A DNA stretch of 64,000 bases from Candidatus Pacearchaeota archaeon. GTDB lineage: Archaea > Nanobdellota > Nanobdellia > Pacearchaeales > GW2011-AR1. Positions within the stretch are counted from its first letter, which is position 1. Each line of letters begins with the position of its first letter. A program made the translations under genes and the position numbers. Below are positions 7,614 through 41,260 of this stretch, piece after piece. The notes beneath the pieces were generated by a model. It saw nothing but the letters and a program-made list of their open reading frames with translations, had not been told where the DNA came from and made no database searches. Location: assembly GCA_018304175.1 (NCBI GenBank), contig JAGVWT010000002.1, forward strand, positions 564 through 64,563. The letters run 5' to 3'.

Positions 7614-9662
7614 ATGAAAAAGTGGGTGTTTGTCTTCATTTGCATGGTTTTTATTGCGTCGGTTGTATCAGCAGAAATAATTCTTAATCAGCAGCCAAAT
7701 GAAATTTATAATCTTGGTGAAAGGATAAATATTCCTATTACAGTTACTTCAAGCATCGGAATTTATGATTTTATGAAAACAGAACTAATTTGTGACGGGC
7801 TTTTAAGGGAATTACCTAAAGAAGAAATTGTTTTACCAGCAAATGAAGTTGTGAAAATTGAAAAATCAGTTTTGTTGATAAAAAGATTCACAGAAGAAGT
7901 GAAAGGAACCTGTCAAATAAAAATCTCATTTGAAAACAAACCTGAAGAATACGTTTTATCTGACAAGTTTATAATTTCTGATTCTGTGATTGTTAAGCTT
8001 GACACGACTCAGTTGGAATACAATCCTGAAGAAAAAATTGTTTTGGAAGGAACAACAACAAGGGAAAATGGCGTTGCTGTAAATGGATTTGTTGAAGTTA
8101 CAGTTGTAGCTGAAAATTCAGAGAATAAAACATTCCAGAATACCGTAAGCAACGGATTTTTCTCTATTGATTTTTCAATGCCGAAAGAGACAAAGGCAGG
8201 ACAATATTTTATCAAGATAAATGTCTATGAAAAAGATCCTCTTGGAGAAATTTCTAATACTGGCTTTTTAGATATTAATATCTTAATCAAACAAGTTCCA
8301 ACAACATTGGAGATATTTTTTGAGTCAACAGAAGTTGCTCCTGAAGAAAATGTGAGGGTGAAATCTATTTTACATGACCAAACTGGCGAGAAGATTCCGG
8401 GAGTTGCAATCATGAGTATAAGAAATTCAGAAAACAAGACTATAGAACAATTAGAAAAACAAACTGATGAATTTTTTGAATATCTGATAAAGTATAACGA
8501 GAAGCCTTCAGAATGGTCTGTTGTTTCTATTTCAAGTGGTTTAACAGCGACGACAAAATTTAAAATAATGGAAAATGAAGATGTTGATGTTGAAATCGTT
8601 AATAGCACTTTGATTCTCACAAATAAAGGGAATGTGCCTTACAACAAAACAACTTTAGTTAAAATTGGAGAGAGCACCTTGGAGATTTATCCTTATTTAG
8701 AAGTTGACGAAGTAAAAAAATATAGCATAAGCGCGCCTGACGGAGAATATGTTTTGGAAGTATTGGTTGACGGAGAAAATAAAATCTCAAAAAACACTCT
8801 GCTGACTGGAGATGCAATTAACTTAAAAGAAATATCCAACAACACAGTAATTACTTTTGTGCAACATCCAATTGTGTGGATTTTCGTAATTTTTATTTTG
8901 GGATTTGTTTCATACATAATTTTTAGGAGGAGTTATAGAAAGAGTTATACTGGTTACGTTCCCGGATCTCCTAAAGGAAAAATTAATAACGTAGTAGATA
9001 CTATGACGGCGATGACTCCACTGCAAAAAAATCTCATGATTGAGCCCAAGAATAAAGCAGAGTTGTCATTCTCGTTAAAAGGGGAGAAACAAAATTCAAG
9101 TGTTATCTGTTTGAAGATAAAAAATTACAGCAGAATTAACATGAAAGATCAAAATATAAAAACATTTTTTAATGAAGTAGACGAAATTGCAAGGGAAAAC
9201 AAGGCAGCGCTTTATGAAAACCAAGATTGTGTATTTTTGATATTTTCTCCTATTATAACAAAGACATTCAAGAATGAGAGAAAAGCTGCTGAAGTCGCTG
9301 AAAAAATCAAAAGAATTCTTGAGGAACATAACAAACTTTACAGAGAAAAAATAAACTTTGGAATTTCGGTTAATGTTGGTGATATAATTGCAAAAATGGA
9401 TAAGGGTGTTTTGCAGTTCATGAGTTTGGGTAATTTTATAACAGCTCCAAAAAAACTTTCTTCCATTTCAGATGGTGAGATTTACATAAGCGAGAAAGTA
9501 AAAGAAAGATTAATTTCTGATGCCAAAACAGAGAGGCATGAGAAAGATGGAGTTGTCTTTTACACAATAAAAGAATTTAGGATAAGGGAAGACCATGGGA
9601 AATTTATAGGCAATTTCTTAAGGAGACTTGAAAGCGATAAGAAGGATGTAAAGAGTAACTGA
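7614..9662 (+). CDS. single-pass membrane receptor-like protein: large extracellular region, TM helix, cytoplasmic degenerate class III nucleotidyl-cyclase-like domain
   Basis: Signal/TM at the N-terminus and a second TM (IVWIFVIFILGFVSYIIF). The C-terminal ~190 aa follow the cyclase-homology secondary pattern (SVICLKIKNY..., QDCVFLIF, INFGISVNVGDIIAKM, GNFITAPKKLSSISDGEIYISEKV) but lack the first metal-binding Asp. Confidence 0.55.
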   Translation: MKKWVFVFICMVFIASVVSAEIILNQQPNEIYNLGERINIPITVTSSIGIYDFMKTELICDGLLRELPKEEIVLPANEVVKIEKSVLLIKRFTEEVKGTCQIKISFENKPEEYVLSDKFIISDSVIVKLDTTQLEYNPEEKIVLEGTTTRENGVAVNGFVEVTVVAENSENKTFQNTVSNGFFSIDFSMPKETKAGQYFIKINVYEKDPLGEISNTGFLDINILIKQVPTTLEIFFESTEVAPEENVRVKSILHDQTGEKIPGVAIMSIRNSENKTIEQLEKQTDEFFEYLIKYNEKPSEWSVVSISSGLTATTKFKIMENEDVDVEIVNSTLILTNKGNVPYNKTTLVKIGESTLEIYPYLEVDEVKKYSISAPDGEYVLEVLVDGENKISKNTLLTGDAINLKEISNNTVITFVQHPIVWIFVIFILGFVSYIIFRRSYRKSYTGYVPGSPKGKINNVVDTMTAMTPLQKNLMIEPKNKAELSFSLKGEKQNSSVICLKIKNYSRINMKDQNIKTFFNEVDEIARENKAALYENQDCVFLIFSPIITKTFKNERKAAEVAEKIKRILEEHNKLYREKINFGISVNVGDIIAKMDKGVLQFMSLGNFITAPKKLSSISDGEIYISEKVKERLISDAKTERHEKDGVVFYTIKEFRIREDHGKFIGNFLRRLESDKKDVKSN

Positions 9663-11472: not shown

Positions 11473-12300
11473 ATGCTTAGTCTTATGACATTAATTATGA
11501 AAATGAGTTTAAGACAAGAAAATGTACATAGGGTATGTGGTCCTTTACTGGGGCTCTCACCATTAGAATTAGAAGTTTTACTAGACCAAAGTTTTGAGGA
11601 AGTTAGAAGTTTTTATGAAGAGAACCACGGATTAAATAAAAATCTAGAAAAAAGACAAAATTACTTTTTTGCAAAAAGCTTCTTAGATGGATGTAAATCA
11701 GTAACGGGAAAAATTTCCAGAGAAAAACATTTAGAAACTCCCCAGATTTTTGTAGAAATGGGAGAAAAAGGATATTCTACAAAATACAATCCTCAAATTA
11801 ATCAGAGAATTGCAGAAAAATTGGCACAGTTCAAAAGAACTAATGGAAATAAAGTGCCAGCTGATAAAATATTTTCAAAGCAATTCACACAGAATAGAAA
11901 TTGGATTATTGAACAACAGCTTGCAATTGTAAAATATTTATGTGATTTACAAGAAATATATCTACAAACTGGGAATCTATTAGATTTAAAACCGGTAAAT
12001 CAACAAAATATTGTGGAACATATAAATTACTCTGCGTCCAGCGTGTGCAGATTAATTAAAAATTTATCTACTAAAATTCCAAGTGGAAGAGTTATTTTTG
12101 CATATGAATTAATTCCTGGAGCAAAGGAGACAAATCAGAAAGGAACTTATGCATTAATGCGACTTAAAGAAGACCAAACCCTATATGAAAATGGAAGATG
12201 GAAAGTTTCAGATAGAGAATTAGTACCAATTTTGGAAAATAGATTTGGTATTCAGGTAGCAAGAAGAACTATTTCTAAATATAAGAGAATGACAAAATAG
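11473..12300 (+). CDS. sigma-54 (RpoN)-like protein lacking an obvious core-binding domain
   Basis: C-terminus ...VSDRELVPILENRFGIQVARRTISKYKRM matches the RpoN box (ARRTVAKYR). Upstream LKPVNQQNIVEHINYSASSVCRLIKN...GRVIFAYELI parallels the sigma-54 DNA-binding domain. The N-terminus MKMSLRQ...LGLSPLELEVLL resembles region I. The true start may be an internal ATG (about 11487-11500). Confidence 0.6.
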   Translation: MLSLMTLIMKMSLRQENVHRVCGPLLGLSPLELEVLLDQSFEEVRSFYEENHGLNKNLEKRQNYFFAKSFLDGCKSVTGKISREKHLETPQIFVEMGEKGYSTKYNPQINQRIAEKLAQFKRTNGNKVPADKIFSKQFTQNRNWIIEQQLAIVKYLCDLQEIYLQTGNLLDLKPVNQQNIVEHINYSASSVCRLIKNLSTKIPSGRVIFAYELIPGAKETNQKGTYALMRLKEDQTLYENGRWKVSDRELVPILENRFGIQVARRTISKYKRMTK

Positions 12301-30808: not shown

Positions 30809-30914
30809 CTAATCTTCAATATATCAGAAACACAATAACAAAGCAAGGTGCGAGTAGAAGGATTTTTGAAAACTACTTAAAAACATTTTTATAATCACTA
30901 ATTGTTAGATAAAA

Positions 30915-32441
30915 ATGGATGTAAAAAGAACCATAGAATCTTTGAGTGCAAATGAAATAAAGATAATTCCTTATCTTGAAAAGAGAAAAATAGGGGAGAT
31001 TTGCAAGGCTTCAGAATTAAGCAGAGTTGCTGTTTTGAGGGCTTTGAAGTTCCTGGAGAAAAAAAGTATTTTAGAAATTTCTTACAATAAAGAGAAAATA
31101 ATTGACTTGGGAAATAATGGTGTAATGTACAAAAAATCGGAGCTACCAGAAAGAAAACTTGTCAATTTACTTATGAGCAAACATATACTCTTGCTTGAAG
31201 AAGCTAAAAAACTTTCTGATTTAACTGACGAGGAATTTAAAGCATCCATCGGAATACTGAAAAACAAAGGGTTTATTGAATTGAAAAACGGGAAGATTCT
31301 TTTGAATACAAACAAAGAAGATATTTCAAAAAAAACCGATGAGGAAATACTTATAGAATCTTTGCCGTTGAGTTATTCTAAATTGAATGATGAGCAGAAA
31401 GAAGTTTTGAAAAATCTACAAAGAAGAAAGGAAATAGTTATTGAAAGAGGCAGAAAAACTGTGGATTTTGAACTGACAAGTTTTGGAAAAGAAATTCTGA
31501 AATCGAAGATAAGAAGCGACTTGATAGAGCAGGTTACTCCTGAAATCCTTAAGAAAGATTCTTCTTGGAAGGGAAAAAAATTCAGGCGTTACGATGTACT
31601 TGCTTTTTTGCCTGAAGTTCATGGAGGAAAGAGACATTTTGTAAATCAGGCAAGCGACTACGCAAGAAAAATATGGACAGACATGGGCTTCAAAGAAATG
31701 GAAGGAAGCATGATTGAAAGTTCTTTCTGGGTTTTTGATGCTTTGTTCACACCTCAAGATCATCCTGCGAGAGAAATGCAAGACACTTTTTTCCTCGGTA
31801 AAAAAGCAGAAATTCATGACAAAAAACTTGCTAAGTTTGTTAAAGACAGCCACGAGGGAAATCTAAAAAATCTTGGAAGTAAAGGATGGCAGTATGATTG
31901 GGATGAAGAAGAAGCAAAAAAACTTGTCCTGCGAACACATACAACTTCACTTTCAGTTAGAACTCTTGCAGATTTGAAAAATAAAAATCAAAAACTACAG
32001 GGAAAGTTCTTCGCTTTGGGAAAAGTCTTCAGAAATGAGACGGTTGACTGGAAGCACGGATTTGAATTCAATCAGACAGAAGGAATTGTCATAGATAAAA
32101 ATGCAAATTTCAGGCATCTTTTAGGTTACTTAAAACAATTCTTCAATAAAATGGGATTTGAGAAAATAAGATTTCGCCCGAGTTTCTTCGCTTACACAGA
32201 GCCAAGTGTTGAAATAGAGGTTTACCATGAAGGAAGAAAAGAATGGCTTGAACTTGGAGGAGCAGGGATTTTCAGGCCTGAAGTGGTTGTGCCTTTGCTT
32301 GGAGAAAATATTCCTGTGTTGGCATGGGGTCCTGGATTTGACAGAATTTTAATGGACTATTACAATGTAAAAGACTTGAGAGAATTATACAGCAATGATT
32401 TGAATCAACTTAGGAAAATTAAATTCTGGATGAAAACATGA
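30915..32441 (+). CDS. pheS: phenylalanyl-tRNA synthetase alpha subunit, archaeal type
   Basis: N-terminal wHTH repeats plus a class II core (HPAREMQDTF, FRNE, GAGIFRPEV, GPGFDRI). Confidence 0.93.
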   Translation: MDVKRTIESLSANEIKIIPYLEKRKIGEICKASELSRVAVLRALKFLEKKSILEISYNKEKIIDLGNNGVMYKKSELPERKLVNLLMSKHILLLEEAKKLSDLTDEEFKASIGILKNKGFIELKNGKILLNTNKEDISKKTDEEILIESLPLSYSKLNDEQKEVLKNLQRRKEIVIERGRKTVDFELTSFGKEILKSKIRSDLIEQVTPEILKKDSSWKGKKFRRYDVLAFLPEVHGGKRHFVNQASDYARKIWTDMGFKEMEGSMIESSFWVFDALFTPQDHPAREMQDTFFLGKKAEIHDKKLAKFVKDSHEGNLKNLGSKGWQYDWDEEEAKKLVLRTHTTSLSVRTLADLKNKNQKLQGKFFALGKVFRNETVDWKHGFEFNQTEGIVIDKNANFRHLLGYLKQFFNKMGFEKIRFRPSFFAYTEPSVEIEVYHEGRKEWLELGGAGIFRPEVVVPLLGENIPVLAWGPGFDRILMDYYNVKDLRELYSNDLNQLRKIKFWMKT

Positions 32442-32442
32442 A

Positions 32443-34101
32443 ATGGCAACAATAACTTTCAACAGGAAGATTTTTGAGAACGAGATAGGGAAACTCGATG
32501 AAAAAATGCAGGAAAAGATTTCTATGTTTGGAACTCCTCTTGAGACTTTCAACTCTGAAGAAATTCAGATAGAAGTTTTCCCAAACAGACCAGATTTACT
32601 TTCGTATCATGGTTTTAAGAGAAGTTTTTTGGCTTTTCTTGGGAAAAAAACAGGGTTGAGAAAATATAATTTGTCTTCTCCAAAAAAAGATTACAAAGTT
32701 GTTATTGAAAGTTCTGTTAAGGATATAAGACCACATACGGCTTGTGCAATCATAAGCGGATTAAAATTGGATGACGAAAAAATCAAGGAAATAATTGAAA
32801 TGCAGGAAAAAATTCACGCTACGCTTGGAAGAAAGAGAAAAAAAGTTGCGGTAGGAATTTATCCCTTGGAAAAAATTACATTACCAATAATTTTTAAGGC
32901 TTTAGAACCAGAGAAAATAAAATTTATTCCTTTGGAAGGAAACAAAGAAATGTCCGGAATTGAGATACTAAGAAAACATCCTACAGGTATTGAGTACTCA
33001 CATTTGTTAAAGGGAAAAGAAAAATTTCCTGTTTTTGTCGACGCTAAAAATAATGTACTTAGCATGCCTCCAATAATAAATTCAGAACTTACCGGTAAAG
33101 TGACCATAGATACAAAAGATGTTTTTGTTGAATGCTCTGGTTTTGATTTTGAAACATTGAAAAAATGCCTTAATATAATTTCCACGACTTTGGCTGATAT
33201 GGGTGGCAAAATAAATCAGATGAGTATAGTTTCTAAAGGGAAAAAAGAAATAACTCCTAATTTTGGAGAAGAAAAAATGAAAATTTCCTTAGAGAATACA
33301 AATAAACTTTTGGGTTTGAATCTTAATGAAAAACACCTTAAGAACTTGCTTGAGAAAATGGGTTATGAATATAATAAAGGAACTGTGAAAATTCCTTCTT
33401 GGCGAACTGACATATTACATGAAGTTGATTTGATTGAAGATGTCGCGATTGCTTATGGTTATGATAATTTTATTCCAGAAATACCAGAGATTTCTACAAT
33501 AGGAAAGGAAAGTAAAAGGGAAATAGTAAAAAGAAAAATTTCTGAGATTTTGATAGGTTTGAACATACTAGAAGTTTCGAATTATCACCTTACAAATAAA
33601 AATTATCAATTCAAGAAAATGGCTTTATCAGAGAAAAATCTTGTTGAGCTTGAGAGCTCAAAGACAGATTACAATATTTTAAGAAAAAATCTGAGCCATT
33701 TTCTTTTAAAAAATTTTTCCGATAATGTTGATGTCGAATACCCTCAAAAAATTTTTGAGATTGGGGAGATTTTTGAGTTGGGGAAAGAGAAAATATCTGA
33801 AAACGAGTCTCTTGCAGTTGCGGTTGCGCCTGGAAATTTTACAGAGTTGAAACAAATTCTTGAATACTTATCAAGAATGCTAAACATTCAGTTTACTTTT
33901 ACAGAGGCCAGTAATTTCCCAGATTATTTCATTGACGGGAGAGTTGTTGAAGTCATTTTTGAGAAAGATAAAATTGGTTATATTGGGGAAATTCATCCTA
34001 ACATTTTAAAGAACTGGAAAATAAAAATGCCGGTTGCTTTGTTTGAAATAAGTTTAGAAGAGGTTTTGGATAAATTATGTCTGGATTCTCACCCAAAATA
34101 A
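32443..34101 (+). CDS. pheT: phenylalanyl-tRNA synthetase beta subunit, archaeal type
   Basis: 552 aa with a B3/4 and B5 domain layout. Immediately follows pheS (1-nt gap). Confidence 0.92.
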   Translation: MATITFNRKIFENEIGKLDEKMQEKISMFGTPLETFNSEEIQIEVFPNRPDLLSYHGFKRSFLAFLGKKTGLRKYNLSSPKKDYKVVIESSVKDIRPHTACAIISGLKLDDEKIKEIIEMQEKIHATLGRKRKKVAVGIYPLEKITLPIIFKALEPEKIKFIPLEGNKEMSGIEILRKHPTGIEYSHLLKGKEKFPVFVDAKNNVLSMPPIINSELTGKVTIDTKDVFVECSGFDFETLKKCLNIISTTLADMGGKINQMSIVSKGKKEITPNFGEEKMKISLENTNKLLGLNLNEKHLKNLLEKMGYEYNKGTVKIPSWRTDILHEVDLIEDVAIAYGYDNFIPEIPEISTIGKESKREIVKRKISEILIGLNILEVSNYHLTNKNYQFKKMALSEKNLVELESSKTDYNILRKNLSHFLLKNFSDNVDVEYPQKIFEIGEIFELGKEKISENESLAVAVAPGNFTELKQILEYLSRMLNIQFTFTEASNFPDYFIDGRVVEVIFEKDKIGYIGEIHPNILKNWKIKMPVALFEISLEEVLDKLCLDSHPK

Positions 34102-35612: not shown

Positions 35613-35692
35613 TAATTACTTTAGTACAGAAAGTATAAAAAACTTTTGAATTACAAAAAGATTAAAAAATCCTTATTTCTCAAATAAGTTGT

Positions 35693-35765
35693 AGCCCCAT
35701 AGTACAGCGGTCAAGTATACTGCCCTCTGAAGGCGGTGACCCAGGTTCGAATCCTGGTGGGGCTA
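35693..35765 (+). tRNA. tRNA-Gln (anticodon CUG)
   Basis: AGCCCCA/TGGGGCT acceptor (A1-U72), CTGCC-CTCTGAA-GGCGG anticodon arm, CCAGG-TTCGAAT-CCTGG T-arm. 73 nt. Confidence 0.9.
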
Positions 35766-35770
35766 TTTTC

Positions 35771-35861
35771 AGGATTCTTGAACTAAATCGGTTTAAACAA
35801 TTAGGAAAGGTTAAGCGAAGGAAAACGTAGTTGTCCTCGCTTCGAATCCTGGTGGGGCTAT
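35771..35861 (+). repeat. tRNA-flanking element E plus a 20-21-nt exact duplicate of the tRNA-Gln 3' end
   Basis: ttgaactaaatcggtttaaacaattaggaaaggttaagcgaaggaaaacgtagttgtcctcgc, followed by ttcgaatcctggtggggcta (35841..35860), which equals 35746..35765. Confidence 0.8.
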
Positions 35862-36313: not shown

Positions 36314-36478
36314 TCATATCATATCTAATCCAACTTTTTTTCTCTCGTATTTCATTCTTTTTTGATTCTTTATACTTTTTAGTAATCTTGAGATAGTTTT
36401 TTCTTCATTATATGCAGGAATAATTATGCTTATCTTTATTATTGACTGAATGAATAAAGATTTAAAAGTATTATACAT
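36314..36478 (-). pseudogene. remnant of a family-2 glycosyltransferase gene (N-terminal ~25 aa only)
   Basis: From the ATG at 36478: MYNTFKSLFIQSIIKISIIIPAYNEEKTISRLLKSIKNQ is the GT2 N-terminal signature (IIIPAYNEE). It then diverges and stops after 54 aa. The listed longer ORF runs into the tRNA-Glu duplicate. Confidence 0.5.
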
Positions 36479-36490
36479 ATAAAATAAATA

Positions 36491-36550
36491 GCAAAGCCCC
36501 GTTAGTTCAGTAAAAGAAACCCGATGGTTTCTTTTCAACTTCCTCGAAAC
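36491..36550 (-). repeat. 20-nt duplicate of the tRNA-Glu 5' end (with 5 nt of upstream flank) plus a diverged E-like hairpin
   Basis: gcaaagccccgttagttcag (36491..36510) equals 36603..36622. It is followed by the hairpin AAGAAAC-ccgatg-GTTTCTT and ..cttcctcgaaac (reverse complement gtttcgaggaag, compare E gtttaaac..aggaa). Confidence 0.65.
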
Positions 36551-36607
36551 GCGGAACGGCGATTTCAAATTGCCTCCGACGAAATCGCGGAGAACTCTTG
36601 GAGCAAA

Positions 36608-36826
36608 GCCCCGTTAGTTCAGAGGCCAAGAATGCGGCCCTCTCAACTGATAACTTTATTGGTTTCGGTTTTCTTGGGCTTGAAATAAACAAAGAAGAGT
36701 TATCTCGGCGAGAGAAAAGCTCTTGCTAAATGCAGCTTTGTTTATCGGTTCAGGAAAAGGGTGATTTCCTAACGGAAACTCACCGAGAGAACGGCCGTGA
36801 CCCGAGTTCGAATCTCGGACGGGGCG
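36608..36826 (+). tRNA. tRNA-Glu (anticodon CUC) with a ~146-nt intron at the canonical 37/38 position
   Basis: Exon 1 is GCCCCGT TA GTTC AGAGGCCAA GAAT G CGGCC CTCTCA. Exon 2 is C GGCCG TGAC CCGAG TTCGAAT CTCGG ACGGGGC G. Intron GAGAG (36785..36789) pairs with the anticodon-loop CTCTC. Intron about 36646..36791, junctions +/-2 nt. Confidence 0.8.
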
Positions 36827-36834
36827 TTGTTATG

Positions 36835-36874
36835 AGATGTGTTTTTTATTCAGGTATAAAACAAAAACACATCT
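36835..36874 (+). other. perfect 12-bp hairpin directly downstream of tRNA-Glu
   Basis: agatgtgttttt (36835..36846) pairs perfectly with aaaaacacatct (36863..36874), with a 16-nt loop. Function unknown (processing or termination?). Confidence 0.5.
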
Positions 36875-36880
36875 GTCTGA

Positions 36881-36954
36881 GGTTTGAAAAAATAGTTTAA
36901 GGAAAAGGGGAAAATCGAAAAAAACCACTAGGTTGTTTTCAAGTTCGAATCTCG
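36881..36954 (+). repeat. tRNA-flanking element E (diverged) plus a 13-nt duplicate of the tRNA-Glu T-arm
   Basis: ggtttgaaaaaatagtttaaggaaaaggggaaaatcgaaaaaaaccactaggttgttttc, followed by agttcgaatctcg (36942..36954), which equals 36805..36817. Confidence 0.65.
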
Positions 36955-37026
36955 CTTGAGATAGTAGCATTTACAAAAATGATAAAAAACCAAAACTTTT
37001 ATAAAAGCTTTTTTTCTATTAATAAA

Positions 37027-37073
37027 GTCTAACTTCGGTTAGACGTGGAGGGATGACTTCGGTCTATTCCTCC
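37027..37073 (+). other. two adjacent GC-rich hairpins, each capped by a TTCG tetraloop (candidate small structured RNA)
   Basis: GTCTAAC-TTCG-GTTAGAC (37027..37044) and GGAGGGATGAC-TTCG-GTCTATTCCTCC (37047..37073), in an otherwise AT-rich spacer between tRNA-Glu and dnaG. Confidence 0.4.
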
Positions 37074-37332
37074 TTCATTTTCTTGCAGAGTTTTTTATAA
37101 CCAAAATCCTTAAAAAGTCTCCAAAAGTATAATGTTATTGAAAAATACCGATTAGTATATTTCATTATCAAATTCACAATCACTTTCGTTTTTAGCTTTC
37201 CAGCGAAAGAAACCGTTTGGAATCATTTGAAATAGCAAAAGGCTGTTTTAAGAGCAATGAAAGAATTGCAAGGTATTTTTCTAAGTCTGTTATTATAACA
37301 GAAATTAAGTAAACAAATTAAAATAAAATAAT

Positions 37333-38502
37333 ATGGCTAAAGTAAGCCCAGTATCGATAAAATATATGATTTATGCGAATTTTATTGCAGAAGGTGCTTT
37401 GGAAAAACCTGATGTTATCGGAGCAATATTCGGGCAAACCGAAGGATTGCTTGGAAGCGACTTGGAAATGCGTGATTTGCAGAAAGAAGGAAAAATCGGC
37501 AGAATAGAAGTTGATTTGGAAAGAAGCGAGAAAAAAACAAAGGGACAAATAAAAATCCCAACTGCTTTGGATCAGTCAGAGACTTCTCTAATAGCTGCAG
37601 CAATTGAAACAATTGAAAGAATCGGACCAAGCGACGCGCAGATAGAAGTTGAAAGAATAGAAGACGTGCGCGGAAGCAAAAGAGATTTTATTGTTGAAAG
37701 AGCGAAGAAATTGATGAAAGAACTGCAGTCAGGCGCAGATTCAAGAGAGTTTTCAACTCAAGTCAAAGATTATTCAAGAATTTCTGGAATCACTGAATAT
37801 GGCGATGAAAAACTTCCTGCAGGAGACATTTCTGAAAGAGAAGTAATTGTTGTTGAAGGGCGTGCAGATGTTGTTAACCTATTGAAGAATGGAATAAAAA
37901 ACGTAATAGGAATGAACGGAACAAATCTCCCAAATACTATAAGAGATTTGAGCAGGGAGAAGGAAATCACTTTATTTGTTGACGGAGACAGAGGCGGAAA
38001 ACTCATAGCACGCAACGTTACTGATAATGCAAATGTGAAGTACATTGCAACAGCTCCTGACGGAAAAGAAGTCGAAGAATTAAATGGCAAGGAAATTTTC
38101 ATGTGCCTTAGAAAAAAAGTTCCTGTTGAAGAATTTTTTTACAGGGCAAACAGAAGATTTGATTACAGTGAAAAACCTGTACAAACACCAAGTCGAACAG
38201 CAGAAGTTAAAGAAGAAGATTTAAGCGACAAAGAAAGAGATGAACTCAGGGCAGTTTATGAAAGTAATAAGAAAAGAGGAAAGGCAATAATTCTTGATAG
38301 AAACTTCAAAAAAGTCAAAAGTGTTTCTGCGAAAAGTATTGTTGGTTCTTTAAGAAACCTTGATGAAAAACCATATGCAATAGTAATCGACGGAACGGCA
38401 ACTGCAATTGCTATAAATGCAGCTGAAGACGCAGATTGCAAAGTAGTTGTCGCAGATAATTTTTCTAATACAAGCTCAAAGCTAAAACTTCTGAGCTTGT
38501 AA
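37333..38502 (+). CDS. dnaG: archaeal DnaG-type primase / exosome-associated Toprim protein
   Basis: N-terminus KYMIYANFIAEGALEKPDVIGAIFGQTEGLLG is the archaeal DnaG signature. Toprim core VIVVEGRADVVNL...LFVDGDRGG. Confidence 0.9.
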   Translation: MAKVSPVSIKYMIYANFIAEGALEKPDVIGAIFGQTEGLLGSDLEMRDLQKEGKIGRIEVDLERSEKKTKGQIKIPTALDQSETSLIAAAIETIERIGPSDAQIEVERIEDVRGSKRDFIVERAKKLMKELQSGADSREFSTQVKDYSRISGITEYGDEKLPAGDISEREVIVVEGRADVVNLLKNGIKNVIGMNGTNLPNTIRDLSREKEITLFVDGDRGGKLIARNVTDNANVKYIATAPDGKEVEELNGKEIFMCLRKKVPVEEFFYRANRRFDYSEKPVQTPSRTAEVKEEDLSDKERDELRAVYESNKKRGKAIILDRNFKKVKSVSAKSIVGSLRNLDEKPYAIVIDGTATAIAINAAEDADCKVVVADNFSNTSSKLKLLSL

Positions 38503-38512
38503 TTTTTCTTTT

Positions 38513-39871
38513 TTAATAGTTGTCTAGATGGTTATCTGGATTATCTAAAAATATTCTTAATTTTCTGCCACGAGAAAAGTGGCGTAATTTTCTAATTGCT
38601 TTACCTTCTATTTGACGAATTCTTTCCCTAGTAACTCCAAGATTATCTCCTACTTCTTCTAATAAAAGGTCGTTGTCTTGATTAAATCCAAATCTTTCTC
38701 TTATAACACGTTCTTCTCTTGGAGTTAAAGACATTAAAGAATTAGAGACAACTTTTCTTTTATCATTTTTTACTACATTAGCAAACTGATTTCCATTATC
38801 AACTTCAACATCAATGTCAATTCCTTGATTTTCTTTTATTTCTGACAGTTGGTTATAATTTCCCGTTAAAGTCAAGTGTACATATCCTGAGATTGGATTA
38901 TGCCTGTTTTCTCTTCCAACATTTGGAAGTACATTCCTATTTTTAATTTTTTCAGCAAGTATTTTAATAAAGTCTTCATCAGATTTTCCTTGACGCTTTA
39001 CTTCTTCACATAACTTTATGAATTTTTCTTTTTTATTAGTGGGAATACTGGTGAAATATCCATTTTCAAGAGCATATTTTGATACAGTAGAAGCTACATT
39101 TGTCTTTATAAAACTGGAAATTCTCCCAGCTTCTGGTAGATAATTTTTCATTCTTTTTATTAAAGCTTCTGCACTAACATCTATTAAATCCCCTAATTCT
39201 ACGTAAGAAGGAAGATAATCAACCTTTGGTCTGAATCCGGTAACATATCTAATTTCTTCTTCGTCTTTATCTAATTCCTGCCTTCTACGGACAACATAAA
39301 ATTTGTTTGAACCTTTTAAAAAATCTGATGCAATATGAGTTATGTAAGGCATTGTTTTTGTGATAATTTCATTTATCGTCATTATTTGTTTGTCAGACCT
39401 TGTTTCAACTGTGTCTCCATATCCATCCATCAATTCAGTAAAATATTCTAAACCAAGTTTGTCAATTGCACGCCAACCTTCATCAGGGAAATTTCTTATT
39501 TCATCTAATGTCTTTAAACCAGGATATTCATCTTTTATTAAATCCTTAAATTTATGAGAAGCTTTTCTATTACTTGGTTCTGTAAGTGCATCCATTAAGG
39601 AATTGTATTTTTTAATTCCTATGCTTCTGTTTTCAAAATAACTTCTTACTCTATCAAAATAATTTCTGACTAAAATAGGAGTATGCTTTGTAATTTTGGC
39701 AATTTTGTTTATGTCAAAACTCAAATCAGAATTTCCTCTAGAAATGTGATTATACACATCAGTGAAACGGTCGTCTATTGTTTTTAAACCATTGTTTGCT
39801 TTTACTTGTGCTTCATAATCTTCTTCATACATGCTGTTTTGATTTAATTCTTTATTTATAAATATTCCCAT
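38513..39871 (-). CDS. sigma-70-family-like protein (clear region 4, divergent upstream regions)
   Basis: The C-terminal [50 protein letters not shown] closely parallels RpoD region 4.1/4.2 (LTxRExxVLxxRFG...[29 protein letters not shown]). Confidence 0.65.
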
Positions 39872-39956
39872 AATACAATAATTAATTTATTATTCTCTCT
39901 TATATTCACATAAAAAATCACGACGACATCCAAATTATATAGCTATCTCACTAATC

Positions 39957-39988
39957 GTTACTAACAGTTAGTACTATTTAGTTAGTAA
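39957..39988. promoter_or_regulatory. palindromic candidate operator in a divergent promoter region
   Basis: gTTACTAAC-a-GTTAGTAc (39957..39974) is a near-perfect palindrome. A third half-site GTTAGTAA lies at 39981..39988. It sits between the sigma-70-like gene and the surface-protein gene. Confidence 0.3.
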
Positions 39989-40048
39989 ATTGTGTTGTTA
40001 CCATAAAGTTTATAAATAGCCTTTACACACTAAAAATTAAAGAAAACT

Positions 40049-41260
40049 TTGTTTTCTATCTTAAATAAAATGGAAAAAAGCAAAATGGATGTCACAAAAT
40101 TTTTGGTTTCTTTAGTGACAGTTATGACAGTATTGCTTGTAGCAACAATCAGTGTCAGCGCAACAACAGACGAAATTGTAACAATAGAATCTGTTAAAAT
40201 CGATGGCATCACTGAAGTCTTCAATGAAGATATAAGTGTAATTGCTGGAGAAAAGATTTCTGTACAAGTTATCTTTGAAGCACTTGAAAATGCATCTGAT
40301 GTAAGAATCGAAGCAGAGCTTCGTGGTGTAAAATCAAGTCCTGATGTTGAAGTGCTTGTTGGAGATGTTGAAGAGGGAAAGAGATACATCAAAACTTTGA
40401 GTTTGACTGTGCCTCATGACCTTAAAAACATAGTAAGCGACGACATTGTTTTGGAAATAACAGTCTGGAACAAAGACTTCAAAACAAACGTTGACGAAAT
40501 AACTCTTAGAGTTCAAAGATCAGCATACGATGTTGCTGTAATGTCAGTAGAAACAAGTCAGACAATAAACGCTGGCGATACATTCGCAGTTGATATTGTT
40601 CTAAAGAACATTGGTTACAATGATCTTGACGATTTGTATGTTACTGCAGCAATTCCTGCACTTGGAGTCATATCCAAGGCTTATTTCGGTGACTTGGTTG
40701 CAATAGAAGTAGATGACGACGACTCAGACAAGAGCGACACAGTTAGGGGAAGAATGTACCTTACAATGCCGTTCAGTGCTGGTCAAGGAGTTTACAGCTT
40801 GGAAGTTGGAGTAACAAATGAAGATTTGTCTCTTAGCCAAGTTAAGCAAGTTTTCGTTGCAAACGAAGTACCTAACGAAGTAATAAAATCAGGAAATAGC
40901 TTGATACTTGTAAATCCTTCAAACAAGATTAAGATTTACAATGTTATTCCTGAATCACCAGCTACAGTAAGTAATAGTGTAGTTGTTGTGCCAGCAGGTT
41001 CAAGCAAGACTGTAGAAGTTAGTTCTAACGGAGCAAAGACCTTCACTGTAAATATATTGAGTGGAGACAGACTTGTTGGAACAGTTGACTTCACGGGAAC
41101 TACAGGATTAGGAACAGGATATAGCGATGTGAACACAGCAAGCCCAACAACTGTATTGGTAGTTATTTTGACTATCATATTCGTTGTATTGCTTGTTGCA
41201 TTAATTGTCTTGTTAACTAAGAAACCGGAAAAAGAAGAATTCGGAGAAAGTTATTACTAA
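40049..41260 (+). CDS. cell-surface (S-layer-like/CARDB-like) protein with a C-terminal TM anchor
   Basis: Signal-like N-terminus (FLVSLVTVMTVLLVATISVSA), beta-rich repeats and a C-terminal TM (VLVVILTIIFVVLLVALIVLL). The start may be one of the internal Met codons. Confidence 0.6.
   Translation: MFSILNKMEKSKMDVTKFLVSLVTVMTVLLVATISVSATTDEIVTIESVKIDGITEVFNEDISVIAGEKISVQVIFEALENASDVRIEAELRGVKSSPDVEVLVGDVEEGKRYIKTLSLTVPHDLKNIVSDDIVLEITVWNKDFKTNVDEITLRVQRSAYDVAVMSVETSQTINAGDTFAVDIVLKNIGYNDLDDLYVTAAIPALGVISKAYFGDLVAIEVDDDDSDKSDTVRGRMYLTMPFSAGQGVYSLEVGVTNEDLSLSQVKQVFVANEVPNEVIKSGNSLILVNPSNKIKIYNVIPESPATVSNSVVVVPAGSSKTVEVSSNGAKTFTVNILSGDRLVGTVDFTGTTGLGTGYSDVNTASPTTVLVVILTIIFVVLLVALIVLLTKKPEKEEFGESYY

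Follow-up and report, generated by a model that had tools for sequence, protein, structure and literature searches.

A sigma-70 homolog of a Pacearchaeota genome with a conserved -35-reading domain, degenerate promoter-opening determinants and added N-terminal modules

Within the 64,000-nucleotide (nt) stretch of Candidatus Pacearchaeota archaeon contig JAGVWT010000002.1 that we analyzed (hereafter the window), the list of open reading frames (ORFs) and the sequence itself reveal a gene on the minus strand (38513..39871) that reads from an ATG start to a TAA stop and encodes a protein of 452 residues, identical to NCBI entry MBS3070804.1 ('sigma-70 family RNA polymerase sigma factor [Candidatus Pacearchaeota archaeon]'). 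Sigma factors on the one hand and TBP/TFB on the other represent the textbook divide between bacterial and archaeal/eukaryotic transcription initiation. The gene is convergent with dnaG (37333..38502, plus strand), the product of which is a primase of the archaeal type (NF003108, 401 bits vs. a cutoff of 300; Toprim domains), with 10 nt (38503-38512) between the two stop codons; on its other side, it shares a divergent intergenic region with the gene of a putative surface protein (40049..41260, plus strand), and both arrangements are as an earlier note on this DNA had described them. Our analysis showed that the protein is a member of an archaeal (DPANN-type) family of its own, the ancestor of which was a bacterial sigma-70 factor of group 1/2, with a -35-reading domain that is strongly conserved, promoter-opening determinants that are degenerate and N-terminal modules that have been added.

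Read from its N-terminus, the protein carries a helical extension (residues ~34-126; 39494..39772, minus strand as for all segments of the gene) that is specific to a subgroup of the family as judged by the family alignment, has no Pfam match and is modeled with a predicted local distance difference test score (pLDDT) of 77-87. This extension is followed by a family-specific block that leads into a long helix resembling region 2.1 (residues 131-186; 39314..39481; pLDDT 91-98), recognizable by its conserved columns, which include W133, L139, Y143, G150, G152, R158 and Q162 of this protein. A charged insertion of low confidence (residues 187-225; 39197..39313; pLDDT ~40), variable in length within the family, lies between the 2.1-like and the 2.2-like helices. 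The equivalent of regions 2.2-2.4 (residues 226-277; 39041..39196) was placed by the TIGR02937 and RpoH alignments, which start at residues 219-225, and by comparison of the family profile with RpoD in the PDB. Beyond it are weakly conserved region-3-like helices (residues 278-336; 38864..39040), where the profile alignment to RpoD/SigA crosses region 3, an acidic disordered linker in the position of region 3.2 (residues 337-361; 38789..38863; pLDDT <60), which is spanned by the hidden Markov model alignment to RpoD, and finally sigma domain 4 (residues 362-442; 38546..38788), comprising regions 4.1/4.2 and the C-terminal helix as delimited by Sigma70_r4 and the RpoD models.

The domain models agree with this layout. 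Pfam Sigma70_r4 (PF04545) matched residues 379-431 with 57 bits (cutoff 24.1; E 1.3e-15), and the sigma-70 superfamily model TIGR02937 aligned to residues 219-431 with 49.6 bits, above its curated cutoff of 42.9, with RpoH-type models aligning from residue 225 onward. RpoD models covered residues 365-444, including the tail after the helix-turn-helix (HTH), with up to 97.9 bits. With respect to the equivalog models, the protein scored far under every RpoD/RpoS/RpoH cutoff, as exemplified by NF004208 for RpoD (97.9 vs. 555 bits) and TIGR02393 for RpoD_Cterm (71.3 vs. 354 bits), both aligning to residues 365-444 only. The Pfam scan of the protein taken alone did not report Sigma70_r2, and PF00140, PF03979 and PF04539 (regions 1.1/1.2 and Sigma70_r3) had no match in this protein or in the family members scanned; of the three Pfam domains by which the earlier note had proposed to check the gene, only Sigma70_r4 was thus found in the protein itself. 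The same note had likened the C-terminal 50 residues (382-431, with 21 residues following) to RpoD regions 4.1/4.2, and the above matches bear this out, while the faint region-2-like stretch that it had seen further upstream proved to be a real region 2.2, as judged by TIGR02937 and by the family profile described below. There was no paralog of the gene within the window.

A word-indexed homology search with the N-terminal 367 residues returned only the protein itself, and a profile-based word search with the family was swamped by bacterial RpoD. Exhaustive HMMER searching of 1.84 billion representatives yielded 38 proteins at E<=1e-3, 7 of which were found at E<=1e-10; the residue and domain counts given here are based on 33 members. 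Most members comprise ~280-370 residues and have three conserved parts in common: an N-terminal block (GW..I..LG.EY..L.Q.GYG....R..Q..I.NEI), in which the residues corresponding to W133 through Q162 listed above are invariant or nearly so, a region-2.2-like block (DL[VI][QN]EG....I....NY.P.KG..STFI) and an RpoD-like region 4. The core-binding motif DL[IV][QN]EG is present in about half of the family, and 26/33 members retain the RIP-motif proline. TIGR02937 matched 30/33 members, Sigma70_r4 27/33 and Sigma70_r2 (PF04542) 20/33, vs. 1/33 for GerE (PF00196; E 0.0016). Against the PDB, the family profile matched RpoD/SigA (E 1e-43 to 1e-33), SigB (1e-32) and RpoS (1e-30), with an alignment to RpoD/SigA that begins at region 2.1/2.2, crosses region 3 and extends into the final residues of region 4. 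The homology of the protein to sigma-70 runs its full length, at the level of both profile and fold.

The closest relatives of the window protein are P0121-P0126 (31-41% identity), and the N-terminal extension of ~100 residues is confined to these proteins, the window protein and a stand-alone protein of 127 residues (P0153). A 785-residue helicase-like protein (P0151) carries at its C-terminus four copies of a 60-70-residue unit with weak likeness (E 1.5e-4) to the 'PGL...W..ID..G' stretch of the extension. Three other family members on long contigs sit among archaeal genes (PCNA, prefoldin, diphthamide synthesis genes, L35Ae and Top6B), with neighborhoods that differ mutually and with contig GC from 27% to 46%. 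Since the members sit among archaeal genes in differing neighborhoods, these few contexts point to a family that is archaeal and not syntenic, its phyletic spread being judged from four contig contexts only. A scan of GTDB genomes with the family-specific blocks returned no confirmed relative.

To map residues kept and lost, we aligned the family together with a bacterial RpoD (P0049) and set the E. coli numbering by the motifs DLIQEG and VTRERIRQ; numbering and residue roles follow the sigma-70 literature. In bacteria, the DLIQEGN motif of region 2.2 contacts the beta-prime clamp helices. Of these clamp-binding residues, D403 and L404 are kept in 27/33 and 31/33 members, respectively, as well as in this protein, which also retains I405; position 406 is Q/N in 27/33 members, E407 is found in 16/33 and N409 in 1/33, with D, V and A, respectively, in this protein, so that its motif reads DLIDVSA and does not match the core-binding motif. 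Within region 2.3/2.4, responsible for strand opening and reading of the -10/-12 element, Y430 is replaced by F in 27/33 members and here, the tryptophans W433 and W434 are each found in 1/33 members (T and N in this protein), and Q437 and T440 are replaced in the family (S and S in this protein). Region 4.2 presents the opposite picture: the -35-contacting residues R584, E585, R586, R588 and Q589 are kept in 21-24/33 members and all of them in this protein (VTRERIRQ), and K593, K597, R599 and L607, extending into the C-terminal helix, are mostly kept in the family and kept here. This helix, which in bacteria packs against the beta-flap, retains its HxSR...LRxFL motif.

The identity of this protein to bacterial RpoD amounts to 63% in sigma-4, vs. 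21% in regions 2.2-2.4 and 12% in the family block with the 2.1-like helix (residues 131-186). For this last segment, mean identity is 37% within the family vs. 14% to bacterial RpoD, while for sigma-4 the mean is 45% to RpoD vs. 33% among members. Because the members are closer to RpoD than to each other in sigma-4, we surmise from the alignment that many of them have independently retained a near-ancestral sequence in this domain. Among the closest relatives by N-terminal part, P0122, P0125 and P0126 have a region 4 that has drifted to 17-33% identity with RpoD. GC content at third codon positions (GC3) was 0.14 in the region-4 segment of the gene and 0.16-0.19 elsewhere; since GC3 is uniformly very low along the gene, we rejected the idea that the RpoD-like end is a recent graft from a bacterium.

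An AlphaFold2 model of the full 452-residue protein, built on the family alignment, had a mean pLDDT of 75.5, with values of 84-98 over residues 50-190, 230-270 and 380-430. When this model was compared with the PDB by Foldseek, the best 50 matches were without exception to sigma70/SigA chains of bacterial holoenzymes, at a probability of 1.0 in each case, so that the comparison with RpoD/SigA suggested in the earlier note came out in favor of a sigma-70 homolog. The global TM-scores of these 50 matches were low (0.17-0.21), as expected because a compact free model is being compared with sigma stretched over the core enzyme. A separate model of residues 1-195 (pLDDT 74) had no significant match in a PDB fold search (best E 1.1), and the extension, predicted to be a novel helical module, and the family block are thus both left without a structural assignment.

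That the sigma gene resides on an archaeal chromosome, as claimed in the earlier note, is shown by several lines of data. The window harbors a ThrRS with the archaea-specific editing domain, DTD2 and the archaeal DnaG, and it also carries PheRS alpha/beta, class I synthetases, SMC, PurD, RNase HII and phosphoenolpyruvate synthase, with an even GC content (0.28-0.36) throughout. No bacterial RNA polymerase (RNAP) subunit was found among the ORFs scanned in the window, and there were no defense genes in the neighborhood of the sigma gene. In all, 17 contigs, which stem from at least 8 independent assemblies (ENA, JGI and Logan), carry the same gene, always between dnaG and the surface-protein gene, and it was nucleotide-identical across the 8 loci that were retrieved. 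Because these contigs share the same neighbors, chimerism or mis-assembly, the possibility by which the earlier note considered that its assignment might fail, is excluded, and the GC3 values likewise match across the parts of the gene. A viral origin was also rejected: the neighbors of the sigma gene had no PHROG match, the family-specific part was absent from IMG/VR in two scans and from GenBank phages by tblastn, and the phage sigma family that the protein does match (phrog_351) is a generic sigma family.

The last 21 nt of a tRNA-Gln(CTG) gene (35692-35766), i.e. 35746-35766 on the plus strand, are perfectly repeated at 35841-35861, 95 nt downstream and 2.7 kb from the sigma gene, where no such repeat is expected by chance. 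This repeat could have been left behind by an integrative element for which the tRNA served as attachment site, or it could be the orphaned 3' half of a tRNA. Since the duplicated tRNA end does not bracket the sigma gene, we rejected an att-bounded element around it.

The divergent intergenic region spans 177-213 nt (39872..40048, or to 40084 with the public gene calls, which start the surface protein at 40085). The sigma gene has a putative TATA box of the archaeal type, AATATAAG (39899..39906, minus strand), at -28 to -35 relative to its ATG, and 4/5 family genes are preceded by a TATA-like box at the distance expected of an archaeal promoter, 25-35 nt before the ATG; judging from these sequences, an archaeal TATA-type promoter appears to drive the sigma gene. 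The surface-protein gene has a putative B recognition element (BRE)/TATA of the classical archaeal type at 40005..40018 on the plus strand (aaag TTTATAAATA; aaagTTTATAAATA). Between the two lies a cluster of imperfect repeats (39947..39988) with ACTAAC/GTTAGT half-sites that are unlike a -35 box, consisting of a palindrome (TTACTAAC-a-GTTAGTAc, 39958-39974) and a third half-site (GTTAGTAA, 39981-39988). The palindrome reported in the earlier note is therefore present, but it is modest and its significance is weak: with up to 3 mismatches allowed, the 17-mer had 2 overlapping matches, at this spot only, vs. 0.42 expected, a result equaled by 5/100 shuffles, and its half-site was not enriched elsewhere in the window. 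The cluster may be an operator for some dimeric regulator.

The earlier note had also pointed to a second, sigma-54-like module within 28 kb, and this one too is real. An ORF of 275 residues at 11473..12300 (plus strand), separated from the sigma-70-like gene by a gap of 26.2 kb, matched Sigma54_DBD with 43.9 bits (cutoff 22.8). It corresponds to the C-terminal half of sigma-54 only (TIGR02395 positions 215-423 of 434), has neither the activator-interacting region nor the greater part of the core-binding region, and terminates with ARRTISKYKRM, which is nearly an exact RpoN box. Although the two proteins belong to unrelated families, they resemble each other as derivatives of bacterial sigma factors that keep the promoter-reading C-terminal end with N-terminal parts missing or remodeled. 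If the sigma-70 homolog took part in a hybrid mode of promoter selection, an unlikely reading considered below, the sigma-54-derived protein might possibly stand alongside it.

Sigma-70 genes (fam00359) have been reported in newly reconstructed DPANN genomes, especially those of Woesearchaeota, in a study that excluded mis-binning, found no anti-sigma factors and called the mechanism unclear (Castelle et al. 2021, PMC8204110); the same study describes archaeal TBP/TFB/TFE in DPANN genomes. In view of that report and of the name given to MBS3070804.1 by NCBI, it is not new that DPANN archaea possess such genes. Our gene resembles those of PMC8204110 in being a sigma-70-classified gene on a contig with archaeal genes in a Woesearchaeota/Pacearchaeota-type genome, whereas the analysis of domains and residues is additional to that paper, which has none. 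What is added here is the delimitation of the family by the part outside region 4, full-length homology at the level of profile and fold, the residue pattern in which the -35 reader is retained while the melting residues are lost and the core-binding ones lost in part, the subgroup-specific N-terminal extension and the sigma-54 parallel. Our search of the literature found no follow-up study of archaeal sigma homologs.

Compared with RpoD/SigA, RpoS and SigB, the protein has the same order of regions 2.1-2.4, region 3, a 3.2-like acidic linker and regions 4.1/4.2, and in region 4.2 it follows RpoD almost residue for residue, including the -35 contacts and the C-terminal helix. It differs from RpoD/SigA as evidenced by: 1) an archaeal host genome; 2) regions 1.1, 1.2 and 3 that are undetected by Pfam and equivalog cutoffs that are far off; 3) replacement of W433/W434 and Q437/T440 and of most of the region 2.2 core-binding residues; and 4) the family-specific N-terminal block and the novel helical extension. 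The second-best NCBIfam match was MzaA of the MZA anti-phage system (NF041931), with 91.3 bits vs. a cutoff of 800, but this match involved region 4 only (residues 363-444 vs. model positions 635-716 of 726), and the neighbors here are dnaG and the surface-protein gene, not MZA.

Based on these features, the reading that we consider most likely, with about an even chance, is that of an exapted sigma factor that binds DNA sequence-specifically and thereby regulates the archaeal transcription machinery, and that no longer serves as an initiation factor of a bacterial core. Such a protein would no longer open promoters for the bacterial core enzyme; its domain 4 would recognize a TTGACA-like site in the vicinity of promoters served by archaeal TBP/TFB, with the remodeled N-terminal half making a protein contact, be it with the archaeal RNAP, with basal factors or with itself. 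This action would match that of other bacterial-type HTH regulators on the archaeal machinery, and most archaeal regulators are HTH proteins of bacterial type that act on the TBP/TFB system. In PMC2995911, bacterial-type HTH regulators, e.g. those of the Lrp family, are described as acting on this system, and the mode proposed here, with an HTH of bacterial derivation near an archaeal promoter modulating recruitment of the basal machinery, would be like theirs; they are not homologous to our protein, however, and are usually dimers on palindromes, while sigma domain 4 is a monomer on an asymmetric hexamer.

Several observations weigh against this proposal. The whole sigma layout is kept (2.1-like helix, 2.2-2.4, region-3-like helices, acidic linker and domain 4), together with DL[IV][QN]EG in about half of the family, and a plain DNA-binding HTH would not obviously need these; as far as the sequences indicate, their preservation fits an RNAP-bound role better. 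Moreover, full-length sigma factors of bacteria are, in general, poor DNA binders when free. No convincing target site was found: TTGACA was not clearly enriched in the intergenic DNA of the window, occurring 7 times vs. a mean of 4.4 for composition-matched hexamers (rank 33/180), at no consistent position, and bacterial-type promoter matches in the 30-50 kb interval exceeded those in shuffles only mildly (89 vs. 67 +/- 10), most of them lying inside genes. A window of 64 kb gives little power for target-site searches of this kind. Within 220 nt upstream of the five family genes, TTGAC was found in 0/5, and there was no motif common to the five.

Some of these same features would be accounted for by a true sigma-like initiation factor that has been re-targeted to the archaeal RNAP and steers this enzyme to a special class of promoters, with the sigma-2-derived domain docking on the coiled-coil of the Rpo1 clamp and sigma-4 contacting the flap or wall of Rpo2; this is the main rival reading, but taken as a whole, we find it unlikely. 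The family retains the order of its domains and the lengths of its linkers with members only ~30% identical to each other, D403/L404 and the Q/N at position 406 are kept as described above, the C-terminal helix of sigma-4 is retained, and the strongly conserved N-terminal block could be a new polymerase-binding surface. Set against this are the family-wide loss of W433/W434 and of further residues required to open the strands and to read the -10 element, the additional lack of Q406, E407 and N409 in this protein, the absence of a detectable bacterial-type promoter class in the window, the archaeal TATA-like boxes in front of the family genes themselves and the want of any known precedent. For a working initiation or specificity factor of the archaeal RNAP in which the sigma-2-derived domain and the N-terminal block both sit on the clamp while domain 4 reads a -35-like box, we consider the prospects to be poorer still. 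It is very unlikely that the gene has no function and is slowly decaying, as a relic of an ancient transfer from bacteria: degenerate key residues in sigma-2, the drifted region 4 of P0122, P0125 and P0126 and the lack of targets would suit such a relic, but the ORF of 452 codons is intact and its composition fully ameliorated, the family numbers 38 representatives with invariant family-specific residues (R158, Q162, W133 and others), many members seem to have kept a near-ancestral sigma-4 independently, and structured domains are predicted with high confidence.

Highly improbable, in our estimation, is an action on a bacterial core RNAP, either that of a bacterial partner or host of the presumed episymbiont or an undetected core in the same genome. 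While the sigma-4 with its 63% identity to RpoD, its -35 contacts and its C-terminal helix would be compatible with a bacterial core, and many bacterial genes are present in DPANN archaea, which are regarded as symbionts (PMC8204110), the translated protein has no signal peptide or hydrophobic N-terminus, its melting residues and, in this member, core-binding residues are lost, the characterized hosts of DPANN are archaea according to PMC8204110, and the ORFs scanned in the window include no bacterial RNAP subunit, in a genome type where archaeal TBP/TFB/TFE are expected (PMC8204110). The notion of an artifact or foreign cargo, whether a chimeric or mis-binned contig or a gene of a prophage or integrative element, draws on the surprise of a sigma factor in an archaeon, on the phrog_351 match and on the duplicated tRNA-Gln end; it is effectively refuted by the constant gene order with 0 nucleotide differences, the housekeeping genes on both sides and the viral searches, and by a tRNA repeat that leaves the gene outside. 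A generic regulator of the LuxR/GerE type, or another HTH resembling region 4 by convergence, was the other way in which the earlier note considered that its assignment might fail. Region 4 and LuxR/GerE HTH domains do have a common fold; however, this protein had no GerE match at E<=1 vs. 57 bits for Sigma70_r4, and its likeness to RpoD covers the C-terminal tail and, at the profile level, regions 2 and 3 too, which refutes this explanation.

A sigma-70 descendant that is kept, presumably under selection, in many DPANN archaea raises the question of what sigma can do without its polymerase, the more so as the -35-reading domain has been frozen near the RpoD sequence while promoter-opening residues were discarded. 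If the protein is an exapted DNA-binding regulator, as we favor, it would be a clear example of domain reuse after gene transfer between domains of life. If it contacts the archaeal RNAP instead, this would be the first hybrid initiation system known, bearing on the debated relationship between sigma and TFB/TFIIB, and as a sigma factor of that polymerase, it would endow DPANN archaea with hybrid bacterial/archaeal promoter selection. The residue map and the family definition make both readings testable with recombinant protein, without cultivation of the organism.

Other features of the window deserve mention. The surface protein (391-403 residues, depending on the start) combines a signal-like segment at its N-terminus with a membrane anchor at its C-terminus, with Ig-like or MG10 matches that are sub-threshold only. 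A protein of 682 residues encoded at 7614-9662 (plus strand) contains an alpha-2-macroglobulin MG2 domain (35 bits, above the cutoff), and the two may be cell-surface proteins of a putative episymbiont. The best bacterial-type promoter matches in the 20 kb scanned are near-consensus sites on the plus strand just upstream of pheS (TTGAAA-18-TATAAT, 30866-30895; start at 30915) and pheT (TTGACA-17-TACAAT, 32338-32366; start at 32443), and they are probably due to chance in AT-rich DNA. Upstream of dnaG, a short ORF (36314-36568, minus strand) bears the N-terminal motif of a family-2 glycosyltransferase, the public calls for one of the retrieved loci (L009) having a gene of 54 residues with a weak Glycos_transf_2 match, and is followed by ~0.8 kb (~36570-37330) without a long ORF; the stretch from 36314 to 37330 looks like a gene remnant. 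Past dnaG, a hairpin with a T-rich tail is located at 38566-38584 (plus strand), 64 nt beyond the stop codon and within the 3' coding end of the sigma gene, and terminator-like sites in the 30-50 kb interval numbered 18 vs. 9.9 +/- 3.3 in shuffles.

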